A stretch of DNA of 50,990 bases. Source: a bacterium (GTDB taxonomy: Bacteria; Zhuqueibacterota; Zhuqueibacteria; Zhuqueibacterales; Zhuqueibacteraceae). Both the position numbers and the translations under genes were made by a program. Shown here in pieces: positions 28,550 through 49,349 of this stretch (position 1 is the first letter of the stretch; every line of letters begins with the position of its first letter). The notes beneath the pieces are model-generated. The model saw only the letters and a list, made by a program, of their open reading frames with translations, did not search any database and was not told the origin of the DNA. The stretch lies in the NCBI GenBank assembly GCA_044869275.1, contig JBIOXB010000050.1, forward strand, positions 1-50,990, given 5' to 3'.

Positions 28550-30061
28550 CTAGCGCCGCTTGGCGGCTTCCTGAGCGAGCATATGTTTCATAACGCTATG
28601 TTTGCGACTATAGCTAAAATAGATCACAAAGCCGATCGCCAGCCAAATGAACAGCCGCCACCAGTTTTCCGCCGGCAATGAAAACATCAGCAGCAAGCAC
28701 AGGGCGATGCCGAGAATCGGCGTCAGCATGCCGAACGGCGCGCGGAAGGGACGCTCGGCCTCGGGATGTTTGCGGCGCATGATGAGCACGGCGGCACAAA
28801 CGATCACGAAGGCGAGCAAGGTACCGATGTTGACGAGTTCGGCCAGAATGCGCAAGGGCACGAGCGCGGAGGCAAATGCGACAAAAATGCCGGTCAGGAT
28901 CGTCGATTTCCACGGCGTGCGAAAACGCTCATGCACATCACCGAAGAAACTCGGGGGCACCAGACCGTCGCGCGCCATGGCCAGCAACACGCGGGGCTGG
29001 CTGAGCATCATCACCAGCAAAACCGAGGTGATTCCGGCAAGGGCGCCGAGCGAAATGAAGAACTGCGCCCAAGTCAAACCCACTTGTTTGAATGCATTGG
29101 AAACCGGCGCATCGATGTCGATTTGATTATAAGGAACCATGCCCGTCAATATTGCGGAAACGGCGATGTACAGCAGCGTGCAAACGATCAACGAGGTGAT
29201 GATGCCGATGGGCACGTCGCGCTGGGGATTGCGCGCTTCTTCGGCATGCGTGGACACGGAATCGAACCCGATATAAGCGAAAAAGATGGTTGCCGCGCCG
29301 GCGAGCATGCCGAGCGGCTCACCTCCCAATCCCGTCTGGCCGAATAAAGTATGGCCGAAGAAACTGACGCCGGTCAAGCCATAGGGCGCAAATGGCGTCC
29401 AATGATCTGCATTCACATAAAACACGCCCACGCCGATGACCAGGAAAACCACGGCAAGTTTGATCAGCACCATGGTGTTGTTGAAGCGCGAGCTTTCGCG
29501 AATGCCGACCACGAGAATCAACGTGACGAGAGCCGTAATCACCACCGCCGGCAGATCGAAAAGCGTACCTGTGGCCGCCAGTTGTCCTGTATCTGGGTTG
29601 AAATCAAAAGGAGCGTTACCGAGGGCATGCGGGATGCTGATGCCAAATATGCCGATAAAATCCTGAAAATAATGCGACCAGCCGTGCGCGACTGTGGCAG
29701 AGCCGACGGCATACTCGAGCACCAAATCCCAACCGATGATCCACGCAAACAATTCGCCGAGCGTCGCATACGCATAAGTATAGGCTGAGCCTGCGACGGG
29801 TACCATCGAGGCGAACTCGGCATAGCACAGCGCCGCAAAGACGCAAGCCACGCCGGCCACGACGAACGAAAGCATGAGTGCCGGGCCGGTCTTGTCGTGC
29901 GCCGCCACACCCGTGAGCACGAAAATACCCGTGCCGATGATGGCGCCCACGCCGAGACTGGTGAGCGAGGCTGGACCGAGCACACGCCGCAACCGGTTCT
30001 CGCCTTTCATTTCTTCGAGCAGCAGCGCAAGCGGTTTTCTGGCAAAAAGCTGGCTGGACAT
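28550..30061 (-). CDS. APC-family amino acid permease (close paralog of 26406-27908)
   Basis: GVGAIIGTGIF, ALCYAEFASM, FFAYIGFDSVSTHAEEAR. Confidence 0.93.
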   Translation of the reverse strand: MSSQLFARKPLALLLEEMKGENRLRRVLGPASLTSLGVGAIIGTGIFVLTGVAAHDKTGPALMLSFVVAGVACVFAALCYAEFASMVPVAGSAYTYAYATLGELFAWIIGWDLVLEYAVGSATVAHGWSHYFQDFIGIFGISIPHALGNAPFDFNPDTGQLAATGTLFDLPAVVITALVTLILVVGIRESSRFNNTMVLIKLAVVFLVIGVGVFYVNADHWTPFAPYGLTGVSFFGHTLFGQTGLGGEPLGMLAGAATIFFAYIGFDSVSTHAEEARNPQRDVPIGIITSLIVCTLLYIAVSAILTGMVPYNQIDIDAPVSNAFKQVGLTWAQFFISLGALAGITSVLLVMMLSQPRVLLAMARDGLVPPSFFGDVHERFRTPWKSTILTGIFVAFASALVPLRILAELVNIGTLLAFVIVCAAVLIMRRKHPEAERPFRAPFGMLTPILGIALCLLLMFSLPAENWWRLFIWLAIGFVIYFSYSRKHSVMKHMLAQEAAKRR

Positions 30062-30155
30062 CAGTTTTCCTCCGCACGTGAAGATGAGTTGCTTATAGAC
30101 GGACTTGGGGAATGATAAAGCAGAGCGCCTTTCTATCTCGTTATGGCAGAATAAC

Positions 30156-31538
30156 TCAAGTCTTTGACTTGCGGCGCCAAAATAGGTAAACGGGCAGACC
30201 GGTGAGCACCAGTCCCAGGCCTGGCCAAGTATAACTCGGCTTGAAGATCAAGAGGTCGATCATAATCAACGTCGCAAAAACGATGTACAAAGCCGGGATC
30301 ACGGGATAGCCCCAGGCTTTGTAGGGACGCGGCGCCTCCGGCCGTTTGCGGCGCAAAACGAAAATGCCGACGACGGTGAGCACATAAAACAGCAGCGCCG
30401 CGAAAATGACATAGTCGAGCAAATCGCCGTACGTGCCGGAAAGGGTGAGCAGCGCGGCCCAGACCCCTTGCAAGACCAGACCGTTGGCAGGCACGCCGTG
30501 TGCATTGAGCTCCCCGGCTTTCTTGAAGAACAGGCCGTTTTGCGCCATGGCATAATAAACGCGCGCGCCCGCCAGAATCAAACCGTTGACGCATCCAAAG
30601 GTCGAAATCATGATCGCGATCGCCATGATGACCGCGGCGTTCCCGCCAAATATGGTTTGGGCGGCGGCGGTGGCCACGCGATCTTCGGGAGCGTGCTGAA
30701 TGGCCTCCATGGGCAGCGCGGCGAGATATGATATATTGGCCAGTATGTAAAGCACGGTGACAAGTATAGTGCCGTACATCATGGCGCGCGGCACGGTGCG
30801 GTGCGGTTCCTTTACTTCGGCCGCGGCAAAGCCGATATTGTTCCAGGCATCGGAAGAGAATAGCGAGCCGACCATCGCGGTGCCGAGCGCAATCATCAAT
30901 GCCATGGTGGACAAGGCCTGGCCCTCGAAGAGCGGCGTCCAAAAGTCTGCCGTATGCAGGGCCGCGGTACGATTGCTGCCGACAAAAAGTGTGAGCAAAA
31001 TAAGCAGCGCGAGCGCCCCTACTTTGGCGGCCGTGAAAAGATTTTGCACGATTTTTCCGGTTTGCAGGCCGCGCGTATTGGTAAAGGTCAGTAGCGCGAC
31101 CACTGCGATGCCGACCAAACGCTGGGTGGAGAACGATACCGGGCCGAGGGCAAACAGAGTGTTACTAGCGGAAATGGAGGGCATCAGCACTCCCAGGAAT
31201 TTTGCAAAAGCCACCGCCACGGCTGCAATGGTGCCGGTTTGAATGACGAGAAAGAGTGTCCAACCATACAAGAACCCCCACAGCGGACCATGCGCTTCGC
31301 GCAAATAAATGTATTGGCCGCCGGCATCGGGGAACATCGCCGCAAGTTCGCCATAACTCAGCGCTCCAACGATGGTGAGCAAACCGGTGATGACCCACAC
31401 CATCAACAACCATCCCGGCGCTCCCACTTGCCGGGCGATATCGGCGGAAACAATAAAGATGCCGGAGCCGATCATGGAGCCGGCCACGATCATGGTGGAG
31501 TCAAGCAGGCCAAGGCCTCGAACGAATTTGGACGACAT
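30156..31538 (-). CDS. APC-family permease (LAT/SteT-like)
   Basis: Real start MSSKFVRGL after AGGAGG; GSMIGSGIF, ALSYGELAAMFP.AGG, FSSDAWNN. Confidence 0.9.
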   Translation of the reverse strand: MSSKFVRGLGLLDSTMIVAGSMIGSGIFIVSADIARQVGAPGWLLMVWVITGLLTIVGALSYGELAAMFPDAGGQYIYLREAHGPLWGFLYGWTLFLVIQTGTIAAVAVAFAKFLGVLMPSISASNTLFALGPVSFSTQRLVGIAVVALLTFTNTRGLQTGKIVQNLFTAAKVGALALLILLTLFVGSNRTAALHTADFWTPLFEGQALSTMALMIALGTAMVGSLFSSDAWNNIGFAAAEVKEPHRTVPRAMMYGTILVTVLYILANISYLAALPMEAIQHAPEDRVATAAAQTIFGGNAAVIMAIAIMISTFGCVNGLILAGARVYYAMAQNGLFFKKAGELNAHGVPANGLVLQGVWAALLTLSGTYGDLLDYVIFAALLFYVLTVVGIFVLRRKRPEAPRPYKAWGYPVIPALYIVFATLIMIDLLIFKPSYTWPGLGLVLTGLPVYLFWRRKSKT

Positions 31539-31573
31539 ATTCCTCCTGCGTGGGTGAAAAAGCGGAAGATTCA

Positions 31574-32806
31574 CTAAGCTAAAATACCGGCGACCGCCGC
31601 GACCATGCAGGTGGCGAGTGTCCCGCCGATCATGGCGCGCAAGCCCAAACGCGAAAGATCGCCGCGGCGCTCCGGACAAAGCCCGCTGTACCCGCCGATC
31701 TGAATGCCGATGCTGGCGAAATTGGCAAAACCGCAAAGGGCATAGCTGGCAATCAATTGCCCGCGCGGCGTCAGCCACGTGCCGTTGGTCTGCTTGAGCA
31801 TTTCGCTCATGTCCTGGTAGGCAATCAGCTCGGTGAGCACGACCTTTTTGCCGAGCAGGGTCGCGACTTTCGCCACATCCTCCGCCGGCACGCCCATGAC
31901 CCACGAAAGCGGCCAGAAGAGCCATCCAAAAATTTGCTCGAAGCTGGTGCCCACCTTGCCCAGGGCAAAATTAATCATGGCGGTGAGCGCGACAAAGGAG
32001 ATCAACATGGCCGCGACATTGACCGCCAGGTGCAAGCCGTCGGTGGTGCCGCGCGCCGCCGCATCAATCACGTTGGCATCGACGCGTGGAATCTCGATCT
32101 TGGTCGTACCCAGCGTGACCGGCTCGTGGCTTTCGGGCAGCATGAGCTTGCCGATCACGATCGAGGCGGGCGCGCACATCACGCTGCAGGCGATCAAATG
32201 GCCGGCAATATCGGGAATGTATTCGCGCAACATGCCCACGTATGCGATCAGCACGCCGCCGGCGGTGGTCGCAAAGCCGGCAATCATGCAAGCGTTCAGC
32301 TCGGATAATGTCAGGGTGGCAATGTAAGGACGGATGACCAGCGGCGCTTCCGTTTGCCCAACGAAAATATCGGACACCGTGGAAAAACTTTCGGCACCGC
32401 TCACGCCGAGGAATCTGGAGATGAAGCGCGCCATGTTGCGGATGATGAAGGGCATCACACGCAGATGGTAGAGCACGGCCATGAACGACGCGAAGAAGAT
32501 GATGGTCGGCAAAATCTGGGTGGCGAAAACGAATCCGACCGGTGGGGTGGGTACGCCCAGCGAGTTGAACACAAATTTAGCGCCTTCACTGCTGAAAGAA
32601 AGCAATTTGTCCACGAAATCGTTGGCGTATTTGAAAACGTACTTGACGGGGGTGTGCAGCACCAAAACGGCAAAGCCGATCAACAACAGCATGCCCAGAC
32701 CGATCGTGCGCCAATTCACATTTTTACGCAATGCCGCTGGGCAAAACAAATAGGCGATTCCCATGATGGCGATGATGCCGAACACGCCAATCGCACGTTC
32801 TACCAT
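31574..32806 (-). CDS. nupC: Concentrative nucleoside transporter (CNT/NupC family)
   Basis: LPTIIFFASF, IFVGQTEAPL, GFATTAGG, YALCGFANFASIGIQIGG. Confidence 0.9.
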   Translation of the reverse strand: MVERAIGVFGIIAIMGIAYLFCPAALRKNVNWRTIGLGMLLLIGFAVLVLHTPVKYVFKYANDFVDKLLSFSSEGAKFVFNSLGVPTPPVGFVFATQILPTIIFFASFMAVLYHLRVMPFIIRNMARFISRFLGVSGAESFSTVSDIFVGQTEAPLVIRPYIATLTLSELNACMIAGFATTAGGVLIAYVGMLREYIPDIAGHLIACSVMCAPASIVIGKLMLPESHEPVTLGTTKIEIPRVDANVIDAAARGTTDGLHLAVNVAAMLISFVALTAMINFALGKVGTSFEQIFGWLFWPLSWVMGVPAEDVAKVATLLGKKVVLTELIAYQDMSEMLKQTNGTWLTPRGQLIASYALCGFANFASIGIQIGGYSGLCPERRGDLSRLGLRAMIGGTLATCMVAAVAGILA

Positions 32807-36257: not shown

Positions 36258-36719
36258 TCATTCGAGCGCAACCTGAACGACCGCCAAGTCTGTTCTGTTG
36301 GAAATTTCCTCCATTCCCGGCCATTCGTTTGTCTGCATGGCCAGATGGAACCAATTTTCTATTTCCTGGTGCCCATCATTTTTTACCATAAAGAGCACAA
36401 CCGCGAAACCCTTGCCGGAAACACCCCGTTCGGAAATCGTCTCCGTCCAATTGGAGGCGTTTCGGGCAATCTCTTTTTGCGGCCACAGCAACCGGCCGAT
36501 TTTAATCGCAAGCCAGACGTGATGATTTTCAGAAATTCCCCGCAATTCCCCGCTGACCGTGAATGTGGTGGGTACAATGCCGTTTTCCCGGGGGGAGAGA
36601 ATGTCGCCACTGGGATAAAAAGGAATTAGAGCAGCAATCACCGTGGCCACAGTTCCAATGATCGCGGTGATCAGCGCAATTCCTCCGATTGTTTTCCAGA
36701 GCGATTTATTCTGCACCAT
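36258..36719 (-). CDS. Hypothetical membrane-anchored protein with a beta-rich soluble domain
   Basis: N-terminal TM, ILSPRENGIV..TFTVSG Ig-like start; overlaps the formyltransferase end. Confidence 0.6.
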   Translation of the reverse strand: MVQNKSLWKTIGGIALITAIIGTVATVIAALIPFYPSGDILSPRENGIVPTTFTVSGELRGISENHHVWLAIKIGRLLWPQKEIARNASNWTETISERGVSGKGFAVVLFMVKNDGHQEIENWFHLAMQTNEWPGMEEISNRTDLAVVQVALE

Positions 36720-37593
36720 TCGGGCACTTGCCTTCTTTTGACCGTGCTGCACTGGATTCGCAATCCCTTGGGGTTGATCGAGCAGGAATGCCTACGGGGG
36801 CATACTTCAGCAATTCCAAGTAACCGTTTCTTAACCTGAGCATGCGTTTAGCTGCATCAAAACGATCGTGAAATTTGAATTCAAATAGAAAAAACATTTG
36901 GTTTTGAAAATTGCAGACCAGGGGATATTGCCCGCGAAAGGCGCGTGAAACCCTGAGCACCTCCGCATGAGATGAAGCTTCATCAATCACAAAGTCCATC
37001 ACGTTCAATCTTGGATAATACCTGGCTTTGCTTTCATCCTGCGGGGAAAAGCTCAGTTCATGCAACTGCAGTTTTTCCCAAAATGCTCCGACCGCCCTTT
37101 TCCCGGCGCGGGCCGCTTTGAAGAACAACGTGCGATTGTCGTCATTTGGTTCTATTCCAAAACTGGCCTGTACGCAGATTGGCCCCGCGTCAAAATTTTG
37201 ATCGATGCGATGCAGGGTCACTCCTCCTTGAGTTTCATCATGCAGCAGTTGCTGCATGACGGGTTCCGGCCCTCGATACTTTGGCAATAGGGAAGCATGG
37301 ATATTGACGATGGGACAGGAGGTGGAATCGATGAAGCTCGGCGGTATCTTGTGCGGCCATCCCGCCATCAGGATTGCATCCAATTCTTTATCTGCAAAAA
37401 CTGCATAACTTTCTTTTGACGAATAAAGGCACACAAACGCAGTTTGGAATAACTCTGCAAACTTATATCCGCTGGCGGAATCGGCGACCATGATGAGATC
37501 CAGTGCACAGTTTTTCAGAAGGCTTGGATCTTGGAGAAAAACTGCTCCCCAGGGTCCAGAAGCTATAAATCCTATCCTATTCAATTTTACCAA
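36706..37593 (-). CDS. N10-formyl-THF-dependent formyltransferase (Fmt-like)
   Basis: VNIHASLLPKYRGPEP and GVTLHRIDQNFDAGPI; RBS AGGAGG before TTG. Confidence 0.88.
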   Translation of the reverse strand: MVKLNRIGFIASGPWGAVFLQDPSLLKNCALDLIMVADSASGYKFAELFQTAFVCLYSSKESYAVFADKELDAILMAGWPHKIPPSFIDSTSCPIVNIHASLLPKYRGPEPVMQQLLHDETQGGVTLHRIDQNFDAGPICVQASFGIEPNDDNRTLFFKAARAGKRAVGAFWEKLQLHELSFSPQDESKARYYPRLNVMDFVIDEASSHAEVLRVSRAFRGQYPLVCNFQNQMFFLFEFKFHDRFDAAKRMLRLRNGYLELLKYAPVGIPARSTPRDCESSAARSKEGKCPNGAE

Positions 37594-37711: not shown

Positions 37712-39946
37712 CTATATGCCAGCCCGATCATCAAATTCCTCGGCTATCATATGTCCTTTTAAAAGCCGGCCGTTCAGAATCTTTTTATACGACCTGGAGG
37801 CATGGCGCAACGATCGCAGAAGCGGAATAGCATGACCTTGCCAACTGGTCAGCGGGAGCCTCATGCACCATGCAACCAGGGGCGAAACAAACCAAAGCGC
37901 GAGAACGGGGCTTGCCGCGGGTAATGCCTCCGGCCGCAGAAATGCCAAGCAACTCAACGTTCCGAGCGAGATGGCCGGAGCGGCCCACATCGATTTGTAA
38001 GTGCTCCACAAATCCACCGGGGCAATGTTTTCGCTGTCTTCCGCAGTGGTCCATTCCAACAAGCGCTGGTGTGTAAAAAATCTTCGCCAAACCGCAGACA
38101 AAATCGTCTGCAAGCTGAAGACGGCATCGTAAGGCAAGCTAACCATCCAAAACCCCAGCTTGCCGGCCTCCCTGGCAAACGATTGCAGGGCAGCATGAAG
38201 TTGGTCAGCTCGACGTTGTGGGCTGGGCTTGCGGAGCAAATCCATTATTAACTTCAGAACCAGCGGAAATCCGTTTATGCCTGCCAAAAATACGCTGCCC
38301 AGCCACGCCGGCCACCAGAACATCCAGCTCATGATCAGAAACAGTGTGGTTCCAAGTTGAAGAAGACTGCGCCTAAGATTATCAATAATCTTCCAGCGCG
38401 AAAGCAGCGTGATCGGATTTTTGTGCAGCACATCTTGAGGGCCGCGAACATGCGGCAGCAACCAGCAGGCATTCTGCCAATCCCCCCTGATCCATCGGCG
38501 CCGGCGCGCCGCTTCTGCGGCGTAACTCGAGGGATACTGCTCAAAGAAAATAATGTCACTCACCAGCCCGGAGCGCGCATAAAAACCTTCGAGATGATCA
38601 TGGCTGATCACGCGATTCTCAGGGATGCGCCCTTTCATGCACTTTATGAATATGTCGAGATCATAAATCCCCTTGCCCACAAAAGTGCCGTTGTCGAACA
38701 AATCCTGATAGACGTCAGCAGCTATTGACGATCGGGAGTCAATGGGCGGTTCACTCCAATAGAGTTCCGTAAAGATCGACCTTTGCGCTCCGCTTGCCGG
38801 TTTCGCAATCATTCGTGGCTGGAGAATCCCATAGCCTTCTCGCACGCATTTTTGTTCGTCATCAAACTCCGGTGCATTGAGCGGATGTGCCATGGTCGCG
38901 ATCAGAGGTCGTATGGCATCGCGCGGCAGTTCGGTGTCGGCATCGACGGTGACCACATACCTGATGCTCTGAAGAATCGAGGTGTCGCCAACGATCAGAG
39001 AAAAGCAATGCGAAGTCCCGGCGCGCAACAGTGAATGCAGCTCGGCGAGCTTCCCACGTTTGCGTTCGTGCCCCATCCACAGTTTTTCGTGGTGATTCCA
39101 TCGGCGCGGCCGGTGAAAGAGGAAAAAAATGGGATTTTTTCCTCGCCTATACTTTTGATTCAGCGCAACGATGCCATTTTGTGCTTGCCGGAGAAGCAGT
39201 TCGTCCCGCGGATTGATTTCCTGCTTGGAGTCACAGAAATCAGTCAGCAAAGAAAAATAAATATTCGGATCGTTGTTCCGCAAATAATGGGTTTCGAGGG
39301 CTGCCAGCAAATCATGAACCACCTGGGGATTACTCAGAAAGCACGGCACAGTGACGAGCGTCCGCATGGCGGGTGGAACACCGGCAGAAAAATCCATGCG
39401 GGGAAGCCGCCGCGGAGGTGCGAGAAACGCAACCAGCCAGTTGGCAACCAAAACCGCGAATTGACTTGCACAAAGCAGTGACGAAGCCGCAGCGAGGGCG
39501 AAAGACCACACACGCAACTGCTCAGAATGAGACAAGATCAAAATAGCCGCGGCGAGACCGGCAGTCATCACCGTGATAAATCCGAGATACAAAAAGATTG
39601 CTCCTCGCTTCACCATCGTCTGAAGCATTCGAGCGGCAGATTTCTCCGCATGCGCCGCCCGTTCTAGCCCAGCGTATCCTTGGCCCATCAGGTAAAAGCC
39701 AACATGCGCCGCACGGTCGTTCTTACCCTTGACGGCAGCGGCTTCCGCTGCCAATTTTACCGCCAGCCGGGCAATCTCGCCCTCCCAGTACGGGCTCCGT
39801 CCCGAGATCGCATGAACCGCATCGCCATAGAGCGCGCGTGTGTGGGCGTCCATGTCAGCATAAACACCGCCTGGATCCCGGCTGAGAATCTGCTCGACGA
39901 CTTTATGGGTTTCGGCAAGCGCGGGTTCCCTCTTGCCGGAAGACAT
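37712..39946 (-). CDS. Stand-alone NdvB/Cgs-type (GT84-like) glycosyltransferase module with TM helices
   Basis: RDPGGVYADMD, LPRMDFSAGVP, WMGHERKRGKL, TVDADT, GYGILQPR, FVGKGIYD, SHDHLEG, RRRRWIRGDWQ; about 744 aa, no downstream cyclase or phosphorylase domains. Start 39946 or 39961. Confidence 0.85.
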   Translation of the reverse strand: MSSGKREPALAETHKVVEQILSRDPGGVYADMDAHTRALYGDAVHAISGRSPYWEGEIARLAVKLAAEAAAVKGKNDRAAHVGFYLMGQGYAGLERAAHAEKSAARMLQTMVKRGAIFLYLGFITVMTAGLAAAILILSHSEQLRVWSFALAAASSLLCASQFAVLVANWLVAFLAPPRRLPRMDFSAGVPPAMRTLVTVPCFLSNPQVVHDLLAALETHYLRNNDPNIYFSLLTDFCDSKQEINPRDELLLRQAQNGIVALNQKYRRGKNPIFFLFHRPRRWNHHEKLWMGHERKRGKLAELHSLLRAGTSHCFSLIVGDTSILQSIRYVVTVDADTELPRDAIRPLIATMAHPLNAPEFDDEQKCVREGYGILQPRMIAKPASGAQRSIFTELYWSEPPIDSRSSIAADVYQDLFDNGTFVGKGIYDLDIFIKCMKGRIPENRVISHDHLEGFYARSGLVSDIIFFEQYPSSYAAEAARRRRWIRGDWQNACWLLPHVRGPQDVLHKNPITLLSRWKIIDNLRRSLLQLGTTLFLIMSWMFWWPAWLGSVFLAGINGFPLVLKLIMDLLRKPSPQRRADQLHAALQSFAREAGKLGFWMVSLPYDAVFSLQTILSAVWRRFFTHQRLLEWTTAEDSENIAPVDLWSTYKSMWAAPAISLGTLSCLAFLRPEALPAASPVLALWFVSPLVAWCMRLPLTSWQGHAIPLLRSLRHASRSYKKILNGRLLKGHMIAEEFDDRAGI

Positions 39947-39987
39947 CTGGCTTCTTTCCATACTCTTTTGCAAAGGCCCATTTTGCG

Positions 39988-41052
39988 TTAATTCGTGCCC
40001 ACCAATCCTCTGAGCGTTGTTGCACAGTGCTCTTCCTGATCGGAGATGGTCATCAGTCTTTTGGAAATACGAGGCAAGATCTCTTCCGCATTCTGCTTGC
40101 CTGCTTTCACCAGCATGTTTCTGACCACCACCCAATGTTCACATATTTCATTGAGCTGACTGGAGCAGTTTTCCAATCGCTTCTCTTGCAAAGCAGCCGC
40201 CGCGCCATGCAAGAAAGTCGAGAACCATTTTCTTTGGGTCGCCAAGGTCTGCAGTTGCATGGGGTCGAGAATTTGCGCGAGGCCTGCCTTTGGATCGCCG
40301 CCGCTTTGGTGGCTCCAGGAAAGCAGGTCTTGAGCCAATGCTCTTATACCGCTGATGCCGGCAAAAATGCCGGCATAATGATTGTTGTCCAGCATGATAT
40401 CCGTTGCCATTCTTAGAATTCTTTGCAGGGTTGATTCATGATATGGAGCCGGCGTTTCGGGGAACTGAAATTCGTAAACCGTATTGCCGGCGGAGTGCAA
40501 AGCATGCAAAAAGTCCGGCAAGCCTACGTCCTTTTCAACAAATTCGATCATGAACGTGTTTTTAACGAAGACATGTTCATACTCTATCAATTTGGTGGTG
40601 CTGTTTTTGCGGTCCAGGCCTATGAGTATGCACATATGAAAAAAATGCGAGTACATAAAGTTGTAGCGGTAATGAGGCAGGTAATATTGATCCAACATCA
40701 CGAGCAAAGGCTCATTTTGGGCGAGCCTTTGTTCCAGCTGTTCCTGAACAGAATGGCCGGAGTTCATATGTTTTGCCCGCATGTTGATCTGGTCGATTTC
40801 ACGGAGATGGCGCTCAAAATGCGTGAAACAATGCACCGCTGGCACAGGCACGGCTTTTTGCTCCCGGTGCGAGACGGGATTGCTTCTATAATAGAAATCG
40901 TACTCTTTACACATCACGAGATCCAAATTCTCGTACCCATGGTAACGCAGAATCCCTCCGATTGAAGAAAACGTACAGTGATACGGCACGATCGCGTTCC
41001 CGCTCTTGGCCGGGACGTAGGGAAGGCATTTATTGAGGTCGATAGTGCTCAT
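39988..41052 (-). CDS. BtrH N-terminal-domain protein (papain-like fold, putative ACP-dependent acyltransferase)
   Basis: YHCTFSS (Cys), PLLVMLDQYYLPHY, HFFHMCILIGLD (His), GISGIRALAQDL helical C-domain; RBS GGAGG. Confidence 0.75.
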   Translation of the reverse strand: MSTIDLNKCLPYVPAKSGNAIVPYHCTFSSIGGILRYHGYENLDLVMCKEYDFYYRSNPVSHREQKAVPVPAVHCFTHFERHLREIDQINMRAKHMNSGHSVQEQLEQRLAQNEPLLVMLDQYYLPHYRYNFMYSHFFHMCILIGLDRKNSTTKLIEYEHVFVKNTFMIEFVEKDVGLPDFLHALHSAGNTVYEFQFPETPAPYHESTLQRILRMATDIMLDNNHYAGIFAGISGIRALAQDLLSWSHQSGGDPKAGLAQILDPMQLQTLATQRKWFSTFLHGAAAALQEKRLENCSSQLNEICEHWVVVRNMLVKAGKQNAEEILPRISKRLMTISDQEEHCATTLRGLVGTN

Positions 41053-41053
41053 G

Positions 41054-41671
41054 TTATCCCCCTCCCCTCGCGCCCTGCATGGTCAAGCAAAAGATATGCA
41101 TGGAGGGGTTATCAGGAAATTCAATCTGGCGTAGTCCTCTTTGCTCATTTAATTCGATCTTTTGCATCCACAAATGCGGCTTGATTCTTGTTTTCCTGAA
41201 CCCGGGAATTTCAAAATATGAAACATCACCCTCCGGCGTGTGATAATGGCTGCATGCCAGGGCAGGGGCATCGTTGAAAAAGGAATCTTGACAGAAGAAT
41301 TCGCTCAAAGCGAGTTCCCTTTTTTCTGGGATGCCATCTGCATAATGCAAGGTTAGGGTGTCTTTAAAGCTTCCATTCTCTGACGCGCCAATCACAAAAA
41401 TGCGCGCATAGCACCTCGGCGGAACGGCCACGCAGTTTCCGCACAAAGCGAGATTATTACCCTTGCCGTCGCTTTTGTCTGGGAACCAAAAGGGCACGTG
41501 CTCATGCTCAAAGATAGATTCGGATTCAGGTAATTCTTCGGCCGGAAAGGTTTTCTCCCAGGAGTCGAAGTCCCCGTCCCCGCGATTGGCATCATAAGAG
41601 ATGCCATCATTGTTGAAGAATCCCGACAGATCGATAATTTCAAAGTGCCGGGCGTTCCTCCGAAGTGGCAT
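41054..41671 (-). CDS. Hypothetical beta-sandwich protein resembling accessory domains of glycoside hydrolases
   Basis: IDLSGFFNNDGIS...GDFD...FPAEELP...VPFWFP...NNLAL.G...LHYADG...IEFPDNPSMHIFCLT. Confidence 0.6.
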   Translation of the reverse strand: MPLRRNARHFEIIDLSGFFNNDGISYDANRGDGDFDSWEKTFPAEELPESESIFEHEHVPFWFPDKSDGKGNNLALCGNCVAVPPRCYARIFVIGASENGSFKDTLTLHYADGIPEKRELALSEFFCQDSFFNDAPALACSHYHTPEGDVSYFEIPGFRKTRIKPHLWMQKIELNEQRGLRQIEFPDNPSMHIFCLTMQGARGGG

Positions 41672-41963
41672 TGGGTATGCAGCTCTCTGCTTTTTTGCTC
41701 GAAAGACCGGAACCGCTTTTCCTCAAGTTCTCTATTTCTTCGACCAGATGTGTCAGGCTATTGACCTCGGCAAGGGTAATATCGTCCCTGAAACGGATCT
41801 GGAATTCCTCTTCAATAGCTGCAATAAAACTCATGAGCGCGAGGCTGTCCAGATCGAAGAGTTCCGTCACGCTTTGGTTGAGATCCGTCAAAGCGCGAAC
41901 ATGGCCGTCATTGCATTTACCCGGCGCAATTTCCAGGAGCTTTGCAAGAATTTTCTGATCCAT
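41640..41963 (-). CDS. Acyl carrier protein
   Basis: LFDLDSLALMSFIAAIEEEFQIRF: phosphopantetheine Ser in a DSL motif. Confidence 0.85.
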   Translation of the reverse strand: MDQKILAKLLEIAPGKCNDGHVRALTDLNQSVTELFDLDSLALMSFIAAIEEEFQIRFRDDITLAEVNSLTHLVEEIENLRKSGSGLSSKKAESCIPNATSEERPAL

Positions 41964-41969: not shown

Positions 41970-42443
41970 TTACCGGGAGAAGATCGAATCAACGGCCGCT
42001 TCGAATGCTGCGATATTATGATTCTCATAGACCGAGAATGAAGTTCGCTCGTCATTGAGATCGTGGCGTTCGACAATAATGGGGCTCTTGCGATTCTCAT
42101 AAACTTGTAACGCTTCATTGGGAATCGTCACCATCCGGAGGGCAGGGCCGAAAGCAATGTTCTTGAAGTAGTTTTCATAGATCAGCGCGTTGGTGAATAC
42201 CAATGTTCTGTCCAAATTTTTGTGATACCAATAATTGGCCAGAAACTGGTTGCAGAAACCACAGCCCTGTGAGGTCAGGATCACATAGAATCTCGCGCTG
42301 TCGGATTGACTCGTGATGAGCTTGATTTCGGCGGAGGTGAGCCCAGGTTCAGGCATGGGCGTGGAGGAACGAGAACACCCGCCCAGGAAGCCCGCGAGGC
42401 ACAACCCCACAATGAGCCAACGGTTCCGGTCTGGTCGCATCAT
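41970..42443 (-). CDS. Lipoprotein with a thioredoxin-like CxxC motif
   Basis: Lipobox LGGC; FYVILTSQGCGFCNQF; later KSPIIV (candidate cis-Pro). Confidence 0.65.
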   Translation of the reverse strand: MMRPDRNRWLIVGLCLAGFLGGCSRSSTPMPEPGLTSAEIKLITSQSDSARFYVILTSQGCGFCNQFLANYWYHKNLDRTLVFTNALIYENYFKNIAFGPALRMVTIPNEALQVYENRKSPIIVERHDLNDERTSFSVYENHNIAAFEAAVDSIFSR

Positions 42444-42466: not shown

Positions 42467-43552
42467 CTATTCTGGCTCCAAAGAGACAATTCTCCATCCG
42501 GTAAGCGTTCTTTGGATGTCGTTCGCCTCGTCTTCATCGCTTTCGCTCACAAAATAGACGTGCTCAGCATCATTGCACCGCACGTTCGAGCCTAGTTTTT
42601 CACGCATGGCATAATTCAAAGTGATGGTGTCGAGGGCGTTGAGTTGCAAATCAAAAATAAAAAGCTTTGTCGTCCGGGTCTGTTCATCCGTTCTTCCATC
42701 TTCGATTTCTGCAACAATAAATTTGCCGAGTATGTGCAATCCACAAACACGGCTGTTGTTAAACAAGTACTCTTTCATCTCCTCAAAGGTGGCGGCAGAA
42801 CTAAAATCTAAATTCTTCTTTTCAACCTTAAACTCTGAATCCCTGATCAAACAAGACTGCTCTTCAAAGTTTTTGAGGTTCATGAGGTGTATGGTGTTTT
42901 CAGCCGGGCTGGCATAGAAAACGACGTCTCCCCGGCTTGCCAAGCCTCCGGAACCTGCATAGAACATCAGCATATCATGCTGAGAATTTCTCAACCCAAA
43001 TGTTCGCACCATTGACTTTTTGCCCACATCATAAACAGCAATAAAGTGAGCTCTCCGCCCGCCAGCCAAATACAGGACAAACCTATTGTCAAAATAAATG
43101 AAATTGCTTATCGCTTCTGAGAATCCAGTGATTTCCTTGAGGGGGAGTCCGTTTTCTTGATAAAGAATGAACTTTACAGCATTTTCATCCCACACAAAAA
43201 TTGTGTCGCCACGAGATTTTATCTTGTGGGGAGATCCGTATTCATAGGGCCCTTGACCCCACCGGCCCAAAGTATCAATTTGACGGCCCTTCTCATTATA
43301 TAACACCAAATTGGCGGGTTGGATGCTTGAGACCACGAATTTATTCTGCCCGACTGGTGCGACACTTGCTATGTGGCTCAATTTTCTCAAGTTTTCTTCC
43401 AAGTCTACTCTTTTTGCTTCCACCAGCGCCAGCGTTTGATGACTGCCAACCAATTTAGTTTGTGCAAAGGCGAGCGCCTGCATGAATAATACCATCGAAA
43501 TCGTGAACCTATCTGTGCACAGTCTTATACGAAGAAAGTTCAGCATAAACAT
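42467..43552 (-). CDS. Exported 6-bladed beta-propeller protein
   Basis: Signal peptide; LYNEKGRQIDTLGRWGQGPYEY, DTIFVWD repeats. Confidence 0.8.
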   Translation of the reverse strand: MFMLNFLRIRLCTDRFTISMVLFMQALAFAQTKLVGSHQTLALVEAKRVDLEENLRKLSHIASVAPVGQNKFVVSSIQPANLVLYNEKGRQIDTLGRWGQGPYEYGSPHKIKSRGDTIFVWDENAVKFILYQENGLPLKEITGFSEAISNFIYFDNRFVLYLAGGRRAHFIAVYDVGKKSMVRTFGLRNSQHDMLMFYAGSGGLASRGDVVFYASPAENTIHLMNLKNFEEQSCLIRDSEFKVEKKNLDFSSAATFEEMKEYLFNNSRVCGLHILGKFIVAEIEDGRTDEQTRTTKLFIFDLQLNALDTITLNYAMREKLGSNVRCNDAEHVYFVSESDEDEANDIQRTLTGWRIVSLEPE

Positions 43553-43616
43553 TTTTCCATGGCGAATGATGCAGCAATTTGCAAGGGTCTGAATAAACGT
43601 CGAAGGTGATAACTTC

Positions 43617-43718
43617 TACTACAACGTTAAGTTCACATTTTTGCACCAAAAACTGCACTGTCATCCCGAAGCATCGGGATGACAAGTCTAGTGGTGGCGT
43701 TGACTTAACGTTGTAGTA
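43617..43718. mobile_element. MITE-like element: perfect terminal inverted repeats around a REP-like hairpin
   Basis: TACTACAACGTTAAGT (43617-43632) / ACTTAACGTTGTAGTA (43703-43718); inner TGTCATCCCGA-AGCA-TCGGGATGACA (43659-43684). Confidence 0.7.
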
Positions 43719-43769
43719 CTACTATCCACCTTTGATGGTTTGGCTTTGGCCCTTTTGCTTTCGCAGTCG

Positions 43770-43925
43770 TCAGAAGCAAGGATAGCAAGGGCGAGGACCT
43801 CCATTCACGCACATCCAAAAACCATCGGAGTAGACAAAGATATGCCACACATCGTGTGCGCACGAAGGACCTTCGTGCAAATAAACCATGTTTTTTGAAG
43901 GAATGGGCTTCATCACTTTTTTCAT
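43770..43925 (-). CDS. Cys/Trp-rich precursor peptide 3 (51 aa): MKKVMKPIPSKNMVYLHEGPSCAHDVWHIFVYSDGFWMCVNGGPRPCYPCF
   Basis: Manually translated, absent from the ORF track; RBS AAGGAGG; homologous to the two upstream peptides. Confidence 0.9.
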   Translation of the reverse strand: MKKVMKPIPSKNMVYLHEGPSCAHDVWHIFVYSDGFWMCVNGGPRPCYPCF

Positions 43926-43949
43926 GGTTTTCCTCCTTGAGCCACAGGA

Positions 43950-44123
43950 TTAGCAACGGCCGATGGCGGCAACGCATGGAGCACATATCCATTGGCCGCT
44001 TGAGACGCACCTCCACGCACCAGTGCTATTGATTTCCATGTGCCAAATCGGGGCGCAACACCAAGGGCCTTCATACAGATGAAGTTCGCTCTTTAAGCGT
44101 GTGGGTTTGATCGTTTTTTTCAT
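43950..44123 (-). CDS. Cys/Trp-rich precursor peptide 2 (57 aa): MKKTIKPTRLKSELHLYEGPWCCAPIWHMEINSTGAWRCVSSGQWICAPCVAAIGRC
   Basis: Manually translated, absent from the ORF track; RBS GGAG; same leader and Cys spacing as its neighbours. Confidence 0.9.
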   Translation of the reverse strand: MKKTIKPTRLKSELHLYEGPWCCAPIWHMEINSTGAWRCVSSGQWICAPCVAAIGRC

Positions 44124-44156
44124 GGCTTTTCTCCGTAGGATGGGTGAAGCTGTTGA

Positions 44157-44327
44157 TCAAACGGGACAGCATCCCTTGCACACTTGAATTCCTCCAGTTA
44201 CACAAGTCCAGCTGCCGTCTGGAAAGTGTTGCACATACCATAGATGAGTACAACACCAAACACCGCTGCTAAATTCATAAAGATATAGTTTCTCTCCAGA
44301 ACGGATGCTTTTGATCGTTTTCTTCAT
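44157..44327 (-). CDS. Cys/Trp-rich precursor peptide 1 (56 aa): MKKTIKSIRSGEKLYLYEFSSGVWCCTHLWYVQHFPDGSWTCVTGGIQVCKGCCPV
   Basis: RBS GGAGGA before ATG 44327; paralog of peptides 2 and 3. Confidence 0.9.
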   Translation of the reverse strand: MKKTIKSIRSGEKLYLYEFSSGVWCCTHLWYVQHFPDGSWTCVTGGIQVCKGCCPV

Positions 44328-44387: not shown

Positions 44388-44753
44388 CTATTCGAGCACG
44401 ATCACTGAATGATAGCCCTCATACGGAGGCGGAATCTTTTTCTTTCTGGGGTTGAGCGGATCGTTGATCCAGTCTTTGCCATTGATAAAAAACCTGTACT
44501 CCAAAGTCTTATGCGGATTCAATATCGTCATCACCCATACCGAATCATGGTTTTCCATCGGTGCCATCAGCCAGCTGCCATTGGCATCGGAGCCAAATTC
44601 GACTTTTTCGTAGTTGTTATTTCTAAGCCGGAATTCCACGATTTCGTCCGTCACCTTGACTGATTTCGGCACCTGGCTGTTTTCCTTTCGAAGACAGGAG
44701 CTTTGAACACAAATCAGCAACCCCAGCAGAAGGCAACGGTAGCGGGTTTTCAT
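44388..44753 (-). CDS. Lipoprotein with a CBM48/AMPK-glycogen-binding-like domain
   Basis: Lipobox-like QSSC; VEFGSDANGSW..PM....VW....LEYRFFINGKDWINDPLNP. Confidence 0.75.
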   Translation of the reverse strand: MKTRYRCLLLGLLICVQSSCLRKENSQVPKSVKVTDEIVEFRLRNNNYEKVEFGSDANGSWLMAPMENHDSVWVMTILNPHKTLEYRFFINGKDWINDPLNPRKKKIPPPYEGYHSVIVLE

Positions 44754-44764: not shown

Positions 44765-46495
44765 TCACGACGCTGCAAGCAAGCGATCCACCGTATTGGA
44801 AACGACTTTTTCAAAATCTCGTTTGGTGGCGTTGTCAAAGCACACCGTCTGAAAGACAGGCTGCCCGGTTTTTGCGGCAACATATTGCGAAATGCGCTGC
44901 ACGAGTTCTTCCGGATCGGAAGGGTTGGTCATCAGTATGGTTTTGTCCGGCAAGGCGGCCGTAAAAAAATGCTCCGAAAAAATGCAACCATAGTAATAAG
45001 GATCGGGACTCATCACACCGCTTTGCGCGCCGGCGATGATAACGTCATATTGCCCTTTATCCATTTCCGAGAGCACTCGGCGCAAGAGAGGGATATGAAA
45101 ATCCAACGGCATTTGCAGCGAGTTCATGGCACCGTATCCGGAGGGAAATGTGAATTCCACGCCGAAACATCCGCAGTGATGCTCAGTGCCAATCTGCCCA
45201 ACGCGGTGTCCCCTTTTCTGGAATTCATGTCGCAATGCCAATTGCATGGTGAACTTGCCTTGTTGTGCGCTGGTGCCAAAGACACCCAGCACCGGCGTAT
45301 CAAAGGCCTTCTTCTCCGGAACGCTTTTCAAAATCTTGATCGCATCCACATGGGTTATTTTTGGAATTTCAAGCCATAACCCCGCCGATTCGAATCTATT
45401 CCGCCACTCCTCCTCCTCGCACGGCGGCAGAAACGAGAATACATTGACATGATGGTTGACGGCATATTCCAAAGCCTCTCGCAGCAGGTCTTTTCGTTGC
45501 GCCGCGCTGGCTTGGTCCAAATAACCCACAAGTAAAGTATCGATACCTTGTGAATCCTCGGGCAGGCCGTGTTGCACCTCGAGGGTTGCGTCACAATTCT
45601 CCAGGACTTGATCGGTGCGCTTGCCGCAGTGCTGGCTCAGCTTGAAGTCGGCAATCCACCCAATTTCATATGGCAACTTATTTCTGAAACGCACAAAGCT
45701 GTGCATTTCCTTGTAAAAGGGATAGAGGCCGGCTTTTTTTATTTTGCGATAAAAGTCATTCCACGGCAGCACGGGCGAAGGATTCAAATCGATCTCACGC
45801 TTGAAAGCTGCGCGCATTTGCAGGAACGAGAGCATCGCAGAGAACTGCTTCGAGATATTCCTGCCAAGCAATTGCTCTGCGAGTGTGCGCGTACAAAGCG
45901 CAGTCGCAAAACTGGACCCTCCGAGGAATACTTGTGAGCCGTTCTTCCACCTTACCCGTTGCCTCGAGCCTCGAAAGATGAAATGGTGTTTTTTGTTCTG
46001 TTCCCATCCCCATTCCGTTTGGTTCTTGTGCGCGCCGCTTTTGACGCTGATCACACCCTCGAAGTTGGCCGGGTAGGTGGTGTAATCTTCATCATTCCAG
46101 GCACACACGAGCACGATCCCCTTTGCAACCGCAAGCTTCACGACTTCTTGCAGTTGGTATTTCGCTTCCGGATCGATCGTACCTATCGAGCAATTCAGTA
46201 GATCGATCTCATCCTGCAAGACGCAGTGCAATGCGCGTCGCAGCTTGGGGATCTCGACATGGGCTTCCCGATCGAAGGCCTTGTAAATGAACAAGCGTAT
46301 CTCTTCGGGAGTAAAGTTGCGCGTAATCAAATCTGCACAGGCCGTGCCGTGACCGATTTGGTCCTCGTATGCCGCCGTGGCCATCGCTCCGGTTTCGACA
46401 TGAATGCCCTTTTCCACAAAGCGCATCAAGCGTTGATCCTGAGTATCTATGCCACTGTCAATAATTCCGATTCTAAGCGGCATATGTGCGCGCAT
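44765..46495 (-). CDS. S8 subtilase fused to a DUF1611/TIGR04066-like P-loop domain (putative peptide maturase)
   Basis: Triad IIDSGI / DQIGHGTAC / GGSSFATA, oxyanion CAWND; C-terminal PVLGVFGTSAQQGKFTMQLALR...GQIGTE...IIAGAQSG; RBS AGGAG before ATG 46495. Confidence 0.8.
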   Translation of the reverse strand: MRAHMPLRIGIIDSGIDTQDQRLMRFVEKGIHVETGAMATAAYEDQIGHGTACADLITRNFTPEEIRLFIYKAFDREAHVEIPKLRRALHCVLQDEIDLLNCSIGTIDPEAKYQLQEVVKLAVAKGIVLVCAWNDEDYTTYPANFEGVISVKSGAHKNQTEWGWEQNKKHHFIFRGSRQRVRWKNGSQVFLGGSSFATALCTRTLAEQLLGRNISKQFSAMLSFLQMRAAFKREIDLNPSPVLPWNDFYRKIKKAGLYPFYKEMHSFVRFRNKLPYEIGWIADFKLSQHCGKRTDQVLENCDATLEVQHGLPEDSQGIDTLLVGYLDQASAAQRKDLLREALEYAVNHHVNVFSFLPPCEEEEWRNRFESAGLWLEIPKITHVDAIKILKSVPEKKAFDTPVLGVFGTSAQQGKFTMQLALRHEFQKRGHRVGQIGTEHHCGCFGVEFTFPSGYGAMNSLQMPLDFHIPLLRRVLSEMDKGQYDVIIAGAQSGVMSPDPYYYGCIFSEHFFTAALPDKTILMTNPSDPEELVQRISQYVAAKTGQPVFQTVCFDNATKRDFEKVVSNTVDRLLAAS

Positions 46496-48089
46496 CGCCT
46501 GGCTCCTGGATATACCGTTCGCACCGCATGTCGTCCGGAGGACGCGACTCAAATAGATATTCTCCGTGCTCGATCATAATTGATTTCCGGGCATTCAACC
46601 AGGCGAGCAGGCCCGCTTTGATCTGCGCTTTGAGGGTGAGATCGAGAGAATTAAAGCCCTCATCGACAACAAGCAGGCGCGGATTTTTGACCACCGCACT
46701 GACGAGCACCGCGGCTTGTTTTTGACCCCGCGAGATGGCTTCGGAATGCTCCGAGATGAGCGTCGAGAATCCACTCGGAAAAGCCGACATGAGCGCTTCC
46801 AGCCTTTGCGCCCGCAGCAACTGGAGGACTTCCTGCGCGGAAACCTCGCGCCCGGCGATGATGCGAATATTGTCAAGCAGCGTTCCCGGAAATACCATCG
46901 GGTCCGACGGAATCAAAAACCATTTTTCATTCACCACTTTGCCGCTCAAATCGTCAAATCCGGACAATATCTGCGAGAAAGTGGTCTTGCCCGCACCGTT
47001 TTCCGCGGTAAGATGAAAGAGGAATTTATCCGTTCGAGGCAGCAGAATGCCGCTTTTCAAGGTGCCGTTGAAAAATGGATGGTTGGTTCTGTCGGTTAAT
47101 GGATCAGTCGTCGCCTGCTCCGGGGATTCGAAAGCCAGCATCTCGTGAATTCTAAGGGTCGCAACGCGGTCTATTTTTGCGGATACTGCTGTTTGCCCCA
47201 ATCCCATCGCTATTTGGCTGGCCCGCCCGGCATACATGATCAACGCGAACACCTTTCCCGCCGTAAACGTGCCCGAGCGGTGATCAAAGCGTATGATGCA
47301 CAAAACGGCAATCGTACCCACCAGCAAATTGGCGAGGGCCAGCGCTTGATTTATTTTTTGCGCCTGATGTGCAAATTGGACTTGTTCCTGTTCCATTTGT
47401 TCCGCCAGGCGCCGGAAGTTTTGGAGATGAAAGGGCAACAATCCCCAGGAGAAAGTCAACGCTGGTTGTTGCATGCCCTGTTGAAAAGTTTGCATGAAAG
47501 AAGATCCCAGAGCTCGGAGCGTTGCCGCGCGCGCATTCAAGTAATTGTTCCCGAGATAGGTTATGGCGAAGACCAGCGGCAGGTAAACCATCAGGAGCAC
47601 CCCGACGTGCCAAGACATATAATGCAAAATTGCCAAAGTGCCAAAGAGCAGCACACTTTGAAAAATCACGCTGTGAGACAAATCAATGACGAAGGATTTG
47701 ACTGAGTACACATCTTGCGTAAGACGCGTCAAAACGTCGTTGGGATAGAATTTTTTCCAAAAGCTGCGCCTTTGAGTCAGAGCAGAATGATAGACGGACG
47801 AGATCACGTCGATCATCAAACTTTCGCTCACCCAGGCCGCTAAAATAGTGTAACACCAGGAGAATCCGATGGTGAGCAATACCAATCCCCCAAAAGCAGC
47901 CATTCCCCAAGCAAAAATCCTCCCTGTCTCAAGGCCGATGATCGCATCGATCGTTCTTTGGAATTGTATGGGGATGAGTAATTGGCACGCCAGCAATAAC
48001 CCCAGGATGAGAAACAGAATAAGTTCTTGCTTCCAAAACTTTTTCCAAAAGGGAAAGATGAATTCAATTATGGTCCTGAAATCAGACAT
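46473..48089 (-). CDS. ABC exporter (fused TMD-NBD), no C39 peptidase domain
   Basis: Six TM, DVLTRLTQDV, Walker A-like AENGAGKTT, signature ISRGQKQ, Walker B LVVDEG, H-loop IEH. Confidence 0.88.
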   Translation of the reverse strand: MSDFRTIIEFIFPFWKKFWKQELILFLILGLLLACQLLIPIQFQRTIDAIIGLETGRIFAWGMAAFGGLVLLTIGFSWCYTILAAWVSESLMIDVISSVYHSALTQRRSFWKKFYPNDVLTRLTQDVYSVKSFVIDLSHSVIFQSVLLFGTLAILHYMSWHVGVLLMVYLPLVFAITYLGNNYLNARAATLRALGSSFMQTFQQGMQQPALTFSWGLLPFHLQNFRRLAEQMEQEQVQFAHQAQKINQALALANLLVGTIAVLCIIRFDHRSGTFTAGKVFALIMYAGRASQIAMGLGQTAVSAKIDRVATLRIHEMLAFESPEQATTDPLTDRTNHPFFNGTLKSGILLPRTDKFLFHLTAENGAGKTTFSQILSGFDDLSGKVVNEKWFLIPSDPMVFPGTLLDNIRIIAGREVSAQEVLQLLRAQRLEALMSAFPSGFSTLISEHSEAISRGQKQAAVLVSAVVKNPRLLVVDEGFNSLDLTLKAQIKAGLLAWLNARKSIMIEHGEYLFESRPPDDMRCERYIQEPGDARTYAA

Positions 48090-48422: not shown

Positions 48423-49349
48423 TTAAAGCTTATATTGAACCATTTTGCGCTTGAGAGTGCTGCGGTCGATATGCAAAATTCTGCTTGCGTGTGTCAAGTT
48501 GTTCCTGGTTTCTTCCAAAACCGCCGCAATATGCCGACGCTCGAGCTCTTCCAGGCTCCAGCACTGTGTTTTGGCTTTGGATAATAGCGTCTCGCAGCGC
48601 AGGTCCAAATCAAAATCTTGTGGCAGTAACTCTGAGTTCTTGCAGTTGACCAAAGCCTTGACGATGGCGTTTATCAGCTCGCGCACGTTGCCGAGCCAGG
48701 AATGATGGAGAAGCAGTTCGTGCGCCGCTGGAGTAAAGTGCGCAGTTTTGCCCAGCTTTGCGCTGTAAACTTTCAGGTAATGCTCAGCCAGCGGCAAAAT
48801 GTCTTCCTTGCGTTCACGCAGAGAGGGAATAGTAACGCTGAATTGATCCAGGCGAAAATATAGATCACGGCGGAAATCGCCTTTTTCAACAAGCTCGCGC
48901 AGATTTGCGTTCGTGGCGGCAATCAAACGAAACCTTGAGCACAATTCTTGCCGCCCGCCCAGACGGCGGAATAGGCCACCGCTTTCTACGACGTGCAAAT
49001 AATTAGTTTGTACTTCCAGGCTCAGGTTTTGAATCTCATCCAGGAAAAGCGTGCCCCCATTTGCCTGTTCGAGCAAGCCGATTTGTTGCACGCTGGCGCT
49101 GGTAAAGGCACCTTTTTCATGGCCGAAAAGCATGCTTTCGACTATGTTTTGCGGCGTGGCGCCCACATCCAACATCACAAAGGCGCCGGCCCTTTGCGCG
49201 CTCGCGCCATGAATGTGGCGCGCGATCAAGGTTTTGCCGGTACCGGTTTCGCCATAAAGGAGAATGCTAATCGAGGTTGGAGCGACCTCCCGGAGCTTGT
49301 GCAGAACTTCCTGCATGGCGCGGCTTTTGTAAAGAATCGTGGCTTCCAT
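48423..49349 (-). CDS. sigma54-dependent Fis-family enhancer-binding protein lacking an N-terminal sensory domain
   Basis: GETGTGKT, ESMLFGHEKGAFTSA, GGTLFLDEI, RLIAATN, FRRDLYFRL, WLGNVREL, C-terminal Fis HTH. Confidence 0.92.
   Translation of the reverse strand: MEATILYKSRAMQEVLHKLREVAPTSISILLYGETGTGKTLIARHIHGASAQRAGAFVMLDVGATPQNIVESMLFGHEKGAFTSASVQQIGLLEQANGGTLFLDEIQNLSLEVQTNYLHVVESGGLFRRLGGRQELCSRFRLIAATNANLRELVEKGDFRRDLYFRLDQFSVTIPSLRERKEDILPLAEHYLKVYSAKLGKTAHFTPAAHELLLHHSWLGNVRELINAIVKALVNCKNSELLPQDFDLDLRCETLLSKAKTQCWSLEELERRHIAAVLEETRNNLTHASRILHIDRSTLKRKMVQYKL

Follow-up and report, generated by a model that had tools for sequence, protein, structure and literature searches.

Bacteroidetocins (class IIf) need a neighbouring thiol oxidoreductase, and their disulfides are themselves inferred, according to the published account (PMC6671954). 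The system of Bacillota that comprises TIGR04066, CLI_3235 (TIGR04065), CcpM (TIGR04068) and TIGR04069 is exemplified by the SacP23 cluster (PMC10731318) and by a further cluster from Roseburia (PMC4573289). Clusters of the TIGR04066 type occur widely, and most of what they produce awaits characterisation. NVEALA-type loci of Bacteroidota encode Sec-secreted Cys-rich peptides beside 6-bladed propellers of the DUF5128/BF3164 type, and in the tryptophan zipper (trpzip) each strand of a beta-hairpin carries Trp and the turn contains Gly. In this study we analysed a window, meaning the whole stretch of 50,990 nucleotides shown here, whose gene string on contig C50 is a radical-SAM-free variant of the TIGR04066 peptide system (S8-DUF1611, ACP, ABC). 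The features follow one another in this order:

48423-49349, minus strand: sigma-54 activator, which heads the gene string
46473-48089, minus strand: ABC exporter with membrane and ATPase domains
44765-46483, minus strand: S8 protease fused to a DUF1611/TIGR04066-like domain (Pfam S8 1e-9, DUF1611 1.5e-5)
44388-44732, minus strand: putative lipoprotein of 114 aa, no known family, tblastn matches at 6/93 loci
44157-44327, minus strand: precursor P1, 56 aa, 6-Cys core (C25, 26, 42, 50, 53, 54)
about 44274-44327, minus strand: P1 leader, ending Y-L-Y-E, cleavage site deduced
43950-44123, minus strand: precursor P2, 57 aa, 6-Cys core with a terminal Cys (C22, 23, 39, 47, 50, 57)
about 44070-44123, minus strand: P2 leader
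43770-43925, minus strand: precursor P3, 51 aa, 4-Cys core (C22, 39, 47, 50), predicted beta-hairpin
about 43872-43925, minus strand: P3 leader
43610-43725, no strand assigned: inverted-repeat element present in many copies (58 blastn segments genome-wide)
42467-43552, minus strand: exported 6-bladed beta-propeller, DUF5128-like
41970-42443, minus strand: CxxC lipoprotein with a lipoprotein-like start, CGFC at about 42252-42263
41640-41963, minus strand: acyl-carrier-like protein (PP-binding 2.3e-5)
41054-41671, minus strand: protein of 205 aa without Pfam or NCBIfam match, at 4/93 S8-DUF1611 loci
39988-41052, minus strand: BtrH-like putative ACP-dependent acyltransferase (BtrH_N 2.6e-8, DUF4872 3.8e-12)
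37712-40135, minus strand: GT2-like membrane glycosyltransferase, 807 aa, weak MdoH/GT2 matches, start uncertain
36706-37593, minus strand: formyltransferase-like protein (Formyl_trans_N 7e-21; orthologue in L011, 4e-77)

An RND gene comes after the formyltransferase gene, and downstream of it lies a transporter run (22640-32806, minus strand) with a sodium/solute symporter, a dicarboxylate symporter, three amino-acid permeases and a nucleoside transporter. The three precursor genes stand in tandem, each preceded by a purine-rich ribosome-binding site, and a promoter scan gave results at chance level only. Directly after P3, a terminator-like hairpin (43658-43685, minus strand) inside the inverted-repeat element could reduce read-through into the accessory genes. 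The element itself was rejected as a component of the system, being multi-copy and not specific to it; it is also present in unrelated sequencing runs.

The window has in common with the CLI_3235/TIGR04066 system a basic leader, S8 and TIGR04066-like domains, an ACP-like protein, an ABC exporter and Cys-rich precursors. In the window, however, a single fusion protein combines the S8 and TIGR04066-like domains, radical SAM is missing from the cluster, and genes for an exported CxxC protein, a propeller, a BtrH-like protein and a formyltransferase are added. All window scores lie below cut-off: the fusion protein reached 81-83 bits against TIGR04066 (cut-off 200; E 1.6e-23; profile positions 1-294 of 361) and 110 bits against QhpE (cut-off 165), and the BtrH-like protein reached 3e-12 against NF053550. 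The acyl-carrier-like protein matches PP-binding and not TIGR04069. The precursors gave no match to TIGR04065 at E up to 5, a model which we consider narrow since it matched in 0/4 genomes with radical-SAM loci, and in the ESM Atlas CLI_3235 clusters at 0.77-0.80 only, which is a weak lead. With the bacteroidetocins the window shares a small Cys peptide, an ABC exporter and a dedicated thiol oxidoreductase, the last presumed in the window (PMC6671954). In bacteroidetocins a peptidase-containing ABC transporter cleaves off a double-glycine leader, whereas the window has the Y-L-Y-E leader and no C39 peptidase match in its exporter; the bacteroidetocin core is also unrelated, and S8-DUF1611, ACP and propeller do not feature in that system. 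By analogy, the locus may be likened to a TIGR04066/CLI_3235 cluster in which radical SAM is replaced by bacteroidetocin-type oxidoreductase logic, while being a member of neither. In the window, as at NVEALA-type loci, a propeller gene comes after small Cys-rich genes in tandem, and a CxxC protein gene, frequent at such loci, is present too; the window's core itself occurs in such a setting (L140, L141, L144). Unlike in those loci, the core here has a RiPP-type leader, a cytoplasmic protease and an ABC exporter. No match to an NVEALA profile was seen.

The S8-DUF1611 fusion has no evident signal peptide and is the presumed leader peptidase and a possible acyltransferase. Its Asp, His, Ser and Asn residues do not vary across 25 close homologues, and their roles, including that of the oxyanion Asn, are assigned by analogy with subtilisins. 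The DUF1611 part, for which no PDB relative was found, is possibly a DgcN-like N-acyltransferase, and BtrH is presumably an ACP-dependent acyltransferase. In most loci of the close clade, the gene for the 114-aa putative lipoprotein comes immediately after S8-DUF1611. The 205-aa protein recurs at L015, L022, L023 and L058, accompanied at three of them by a BtrH-like gene. As the ACP, BtrH-like and GT2-like genes share one gene string, some Cys of the precursors might be S-acylated (by ACP/BtrH) or S-glycosylated (by the GT2-like ORF), or might enter intermolecular disulfides, and members with odd Cys numbers exist, as described below. ACP genes, however, also occur at loci with Cys-free cores (L070, L074), which points to an amine acceptor. 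The GT2-like ORF presumably resembles the N-terminal part of cyclic glucan synthases and sits between the BtrH-like and formyltransferase genes as an insertion; tblastn revealed a counterpart at 0/93 related loci, and its weak matches are membrane glucan synthases, for which reasons it was rejected as a glycocin transferase. Compared with glycocins, no SunS-type glycosyltransferase is conserved with the window peptides. The ORF probably stands outside the peptide system, and S-acylation, S-glycosylation and intermolecular bonding together are judged highly unlikely.

Reading the ORFs directly, we observed 6, 6 and 4 Cys in P1, P2 and P3 with four Cys invariant (Ca, Cb, Cc and Cd), as the original prediction had stated, and the W-x7-G-x-W motif with its PDG/STG/SDG turn is equally present; the two Trp and the turn Gly are conserved in all three. 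Behind the shared leader, the core pattern is Ca-x3/4-W-x9-W-x-Cb-x7-Cc-x2-Cd. P1-P3 are its sole convincing matches in the 6.67-Mb genome (HMM E ~1e-31; next best 0.13), and an extra regex match on contig C197 was rejected as a copy, as it is without the C-terminal Cys pair. Being tandem paralogues, the three represent roughly one evolutionary event, so that the Cys pattern of the window taken alone is no better than chance, and the use of three paralogues as statistical covariation was rejected. The extra C-terminal Cys falls one residue past Cd in P1 and seven past Cd in P2, that is, in different columns.

Direct homologue searches with P1-P3 returned only P3 itself, the ESM Atlas gave matches under 0.9 only, and the P3 core had no solved relative by sequence or fold. 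A HMMER scan of 1.84 billion proteins gave seven matches, with one credible relative, P0127 (104 aa, hydrophobic N-terminus); five others were also returned, of which the two inspected were repeat proteins and were rejected, and three were not read. P0127 displays the exact core spacing, for which about 0.004 matches would be expected by chance at rough residue frequencies. Once P0127 was added, the profile recovered tandem core pairs in L141, L140 and L144; in the core-profile searches of genomes, real homologues were found in G425, G1054 and G1214 only, and most weak matches were inspected and rejected. The five complete homologues of L140, L141 and L144 start with a Sec-like hydrophobic stretch, as judged by eye (L141A is incomplete, its gene being cut by the contig end), and a propeller gene comes after each core pair. 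L141 carries an orthologue of the window's propeller (38% identity, E 5e-86) and also encodes an S26 signal peptidase. The S8-DUF1611 profile had no match in these three Sec-type genomes, whose completeness was not given, while it matched 5/5 controls. Of the four core Cys, just Cb and Cc are retained in two remote relatives of the leader type, L015 and P0134 (E 0.01, leader included). Separately, L016 encodes a Sec-type 4-Cys peptide (5084-5275, plus strand) with propeller, CxxC and MauE genes, located directly upstream of an S8-DUF1611 C-terminal fragment, so that a single locus brings the two export types together. In L011 (5779-5964, plus strand) the Y-L-Y-E leader precedes a glycine-zipper core that has a Cys close to either end, and similar cores in L031 (16276-16624, plus strand) have double-glycine leaders, both near TlpA and MauE genes, which makes a second leader swap possible.

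For the leader family, 89 S8-DUF1611 loci plus L142 were considered and precursors were recognised by a basic leader that terminates in Y-[LA]-Y-E or a comparable motif, which yielded 23 distinct peptides from 21 loci, most loci yielding none; repeats were dropped (L073, L084, L085, L087-L091, L045, L047). At loci with a membrane-anchored CxxC protein and without radical SAM, the Cys counts were 2, 4, 6, 6, 6, 4, 2 and 5, the odd exception being L022, and with the window included 10/11 peptides of such oxidoreductase-type loci are even. Radical-SAM loci gave 11, 11, 3, 5, 4, 2, 5 and 3, hence 2/8 even and 6/8 odd. The contrast, in groups and peptides picked by eye with four even-type loci coming from one genome (G104) and a differing leader at L043, has a one-sided Fisher p=0.006; it stands at p=0.02 without the window (7/8 even) and is borderline when collapsed to core types (6/7 vs 2/7 even, p=0.051). 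The TlpA/MauE pair of L031 was assigned to separate double-glycine peptides further downstream. Seven peptides came from loci where neither type was seen (L044 among them being checked for radical SAM only), four with Cys-free cores and three ending CxxCH, and two leader-bearing orphans have 2 and 4 Cys. Across 166 further genomes from the phylum of the window, where 3/4 weak matches were inspected, a leader-type profile turned up no additional precursor that was credible; it gave one new precursor (L124/L142) in 401 genomes, where 2/12 weak matches outside G101, G102 and G104 were inspected. The Melioribacteraceae genome G104 holds at least four loci (L142, L013, L038 and L014 on contigs C116, C119, C124 and C128) whose five precursors fall into four unrelated core types and all have even numbers of Cys. 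Melioribacteraceae, including the named isolate Rosettibacter primus, which offers a culturable entry point, also carry precursors of 132-133 aa with the same leader and 11 Cys beside radical SAM (L029:3107-3505 and L031:6442-6843, plus strand).

The parity contrast bears on the proposal that the Cys form thioethers of the sacti- or ranthipeptide type through a radical SAM enzyme acting in trans, an idea put forward for CLI_3235/TIGR04068 clusters. This leader and the S8-DUF1611-ACP chassis do occur beside radical SAM in L029, L031, L043, L051, L052, L076 and L083, the genome has 28 radical SAM (PF04055) matches, and the contig ends at 50990. Against this, none of the 28 is on contig C50, where the start of the gene string falls inside the window, the radical-SAM substrates are mostly odd in Cys, and the Sec-type core homologues belong to genomes where the chassis was not found; thioethers thus seem very improbable. 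Counting against the disulfide reading, MauE is not encoded on C50, and one gene is present on C245. Disulfides, which the original prediction had favoured over thioethers or metal binding, gain from the parity contrast, the Sec-type homologues, the loss of CxxC in L144B and the lack of radical SAM on the contig. The further expectation, that odd counts would not be common, holds for most members, with exceptions in 2/11 complete core homologues (9/11 being even) and in 1/11 leader-type peptides of oxidoreductase loci. Each of the odd homologues, P0127 (5 Cys) and L141B (7 Cys), carries a single additional Cys, located 16 or 23 residues upstream in what may be a pro-region.

The presumed thiol-disulfide oxidoreductase is the CxxC lipoprotein, on the basis of its conserved CxxC and its position. 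It has no family match, its L141 orthologue retains the CxxC (24%, E 3e-13), and close-clade positional neighbours match Redoxin, AhpC-TSA, ResA and MauE. Positional analogues in L011, L014 and L142 are Redoxin/TlpA-like, while those in L013, L038 and L022 share the CxxC motif only; the comparison of the window protein with its analogues gave a motif-only match (hhalign probability 18.7). Its structural model is of low confidence (pLDDT 49), yet the elements run strand-CxxC-helix-strand-helix-strand-strand-helix, an order resembling that of thioredoxin, and a fold search with this model, too poor for searching, gave no fold match.

Concerning the pairing of the Cys, the original prediction was that the extra Cys of the N-terminal CC is bonded to the extra C-terminal Cys. 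This arrangement was seen in 3/5 CC cores (P1, P2 and L141B) and in none of the four non-CC cores (P3, P0127, L140A and L144B), with a Fisher p=0.12, and it failed in the remaining 2/5, where L140B and its orthologue L144A have CC without the C-terminal Cys and an extra Cys 9 residues upstream. The looser rule that CC goes with a nearby extra Cys holds in 5/5 vs 0/4 (p=0.008; collapsed 0.029), though it was framed post hoc. Among single-Cys homologues either CC position serves as Ca, so that either Cys of CC may be the extra one. The Cb-Cc spacing is 7 in 10/10 cores, whereas Cd shifts in L144B (C-x5-C) and Ca stands 3 or 4 residues before Trp; Ca and Cd are lost together in L015 and P0134, and the upstream loop added in L140B and L144A resembles the Cb-Cc loop. 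These features point to pairing of Cb with Cc and of Ca with Cd (in P3, C39-C47 and C22-C50), which on sequence grounds is the likeliest arrangement, with a little more in its favour than against it. Variant alleles were recovered as single contigs from unrelated runs, at depth 2.4-4.3 and covering parts of P1 and P3. The P1 allele of run X3 has 9 listed amino-acid changes between residues 34 and 52, none at Cys or Trp, a count of listed differences only, 10 further differences not being shown; its change at C54 is synonymous, as also in X4, the turn Gly is shifted by one residue, and H34Y lies opposite W40. The P3 variant replaces A23 with Arg, not Cys.

The same Cys arrangement was weighed as a knuckle binding one Zn or Cu ion, by which the peptides would be metal-binding minidomains. 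Such a knuckle would suit the C-terminal CxxC found in 9/10 aligned cores and the His that adjoins the first Trp in several of them. Leader-bearing Gly/Ala-rich bacteriocin-like peptides adjoining S8-DUF1611 (L017:9348-9653, L064:5835-6170 and L067:9524-9859, plus strand) end in a conserved CxxCH with basic residues, which is the c-type heme attachment motif; the products are possibly heme-tagged, and Cys in this leader superfamily can therefore serve cofactor binding. The broken CxxC spacing of L144B nevertheless argues against a metal knuckle, as do the two-Cys members L015 and P0134, the occurrence of extra Cys in local pairs (the post hoc 5/5 CC cores vs 0/4) and the Sec-type homologues, which would sit in an oxidising compartment. 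The best Pfam match to a zinc-finger-like family was at E 0.034 only, and we regard metal binding as unlikely.

The hairpin claimed in the original prediction was recovered by AlphaFold2, which, from 5 sequences, gave the P3 core two strands, 9-13 and 19-23, at a mean pLDDT of 71 and a pTM of 0.37. The register deduced from these predicted strand limits, antiparallel around S-D-G, is W27:N41, I29:C39 and V31:W37, and in P2 it sets E30 opposite R38. The S-D-G turn fits a 3:5 type I + G1 bulge. The cross-strand Trp pair did not survive, as this register leaves the two Trp apart and the second is replaced by F or I in 3/10 cores, all with long loop insertions, while the first is invariant in 10/10; support thus extends to the hairpin but not to the Trp pair. 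Both Trp would instead lie on one face, two rungs apart, flanking Cb, so that compared with trpzip they are not directly opposed in a predicted register of moderate confidence, and stability would probably come from disulfides. A hairpin of the trpzip kind, in which the Trp pair across the strands and the second CC Cys is bonded to the extra C-terminal Cys, agrees with the predicted hairpin, with L141B, which independently has CC and the extra Cys, and with P3, P0127, L140A and L144B, which have neither. It conflicts with the register and the missing second Trp, with L140B and L144A, and with the use of either CC position by single-Cys homologues, and is therefore considered doubtful.

Our best reading is that the Cys of P1-P3 form disulfides, in which we place good confidence. 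Nearly as firmly, we consider that P1-P3 are the precursors of small exported disulfide-locked beta-hairpin peptides, matured by the whole pathway proposed here; gene content and conservation come from sequence, and every chemical step is inferred from them. The cytoplasmic S8 domain would remove the leader after the conserved Y-[LA]-Y-E. The new N-terminus may then be acylated from ACP by DUF1611 or BtrH, or formylated, the weakest step and a tentative one. The ABC transporter would export the reduced peptide, whose Cys the CxxC lipoprotein would oxidise or isomerise outside the cytoplasm. Cb-Cc would close a short loop after strand 2 and Ca-Cd would tie the termini, and a third bond in P1 and P2 would join one Cys of the CC, in either register, to the extra terminal Cys. 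Both Trp would share one hydrophobic face around Cb, packing against the disulfide loop and not against each other, and the result would be a hairpin peptide with 2 or 3 disulfides. Outside the cell, the product would most likely serve as an antibacterial peptide or as a ligand, and the propeller, judging from co-occurrence, is its likely binding partner.

The disulfide inference taken alone is unsurprising; what the present analysis adds is a division of Cys parity according to neighbour and the presence of one core behind both Sec and RiPP leaders. In the literature covered, mostly at title and abstract level and largely outside subscription journals, there was no published description of the P1-P3 peptide family or of a disulfide branch, and no description of N-acylated disulfide-locked beta-hairpin mini-proteins as a combination was found. 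The occurrence of one core behind a RiPP-type leader and a Sec signal suggests a maturation pathway with a disulfide branch and exchangeable cargo. More speculatively, and we hold the following to be possible at best, S8-DUF1611-ACP may be a general chassis to cut, acylate and export, with the Cys chemistry depending on which exchangeable neighbour is present: radical SAM (mostly odd), exported CxxC/MauE (even) or none (Cys-free). The window locus might then be a Sec-secreted disulfide mini-protein, with propeller and CxxC partners, that swapped its signal peptide for a RiPP leader, or the reverse, and its products might be N-acylated disulfide-locked beta-hairpin mini-proteins. Since the cores of 33-39 residues are synthesisable and have simple expected masses, the radical-SAM-free branch is the easiest in which to test DUF1611, ACP and BtrH. 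One core family under two export routes would be natural leader swapping, and a leader that tolerates unrelated disulfide cores could help in producing constrained peptides.
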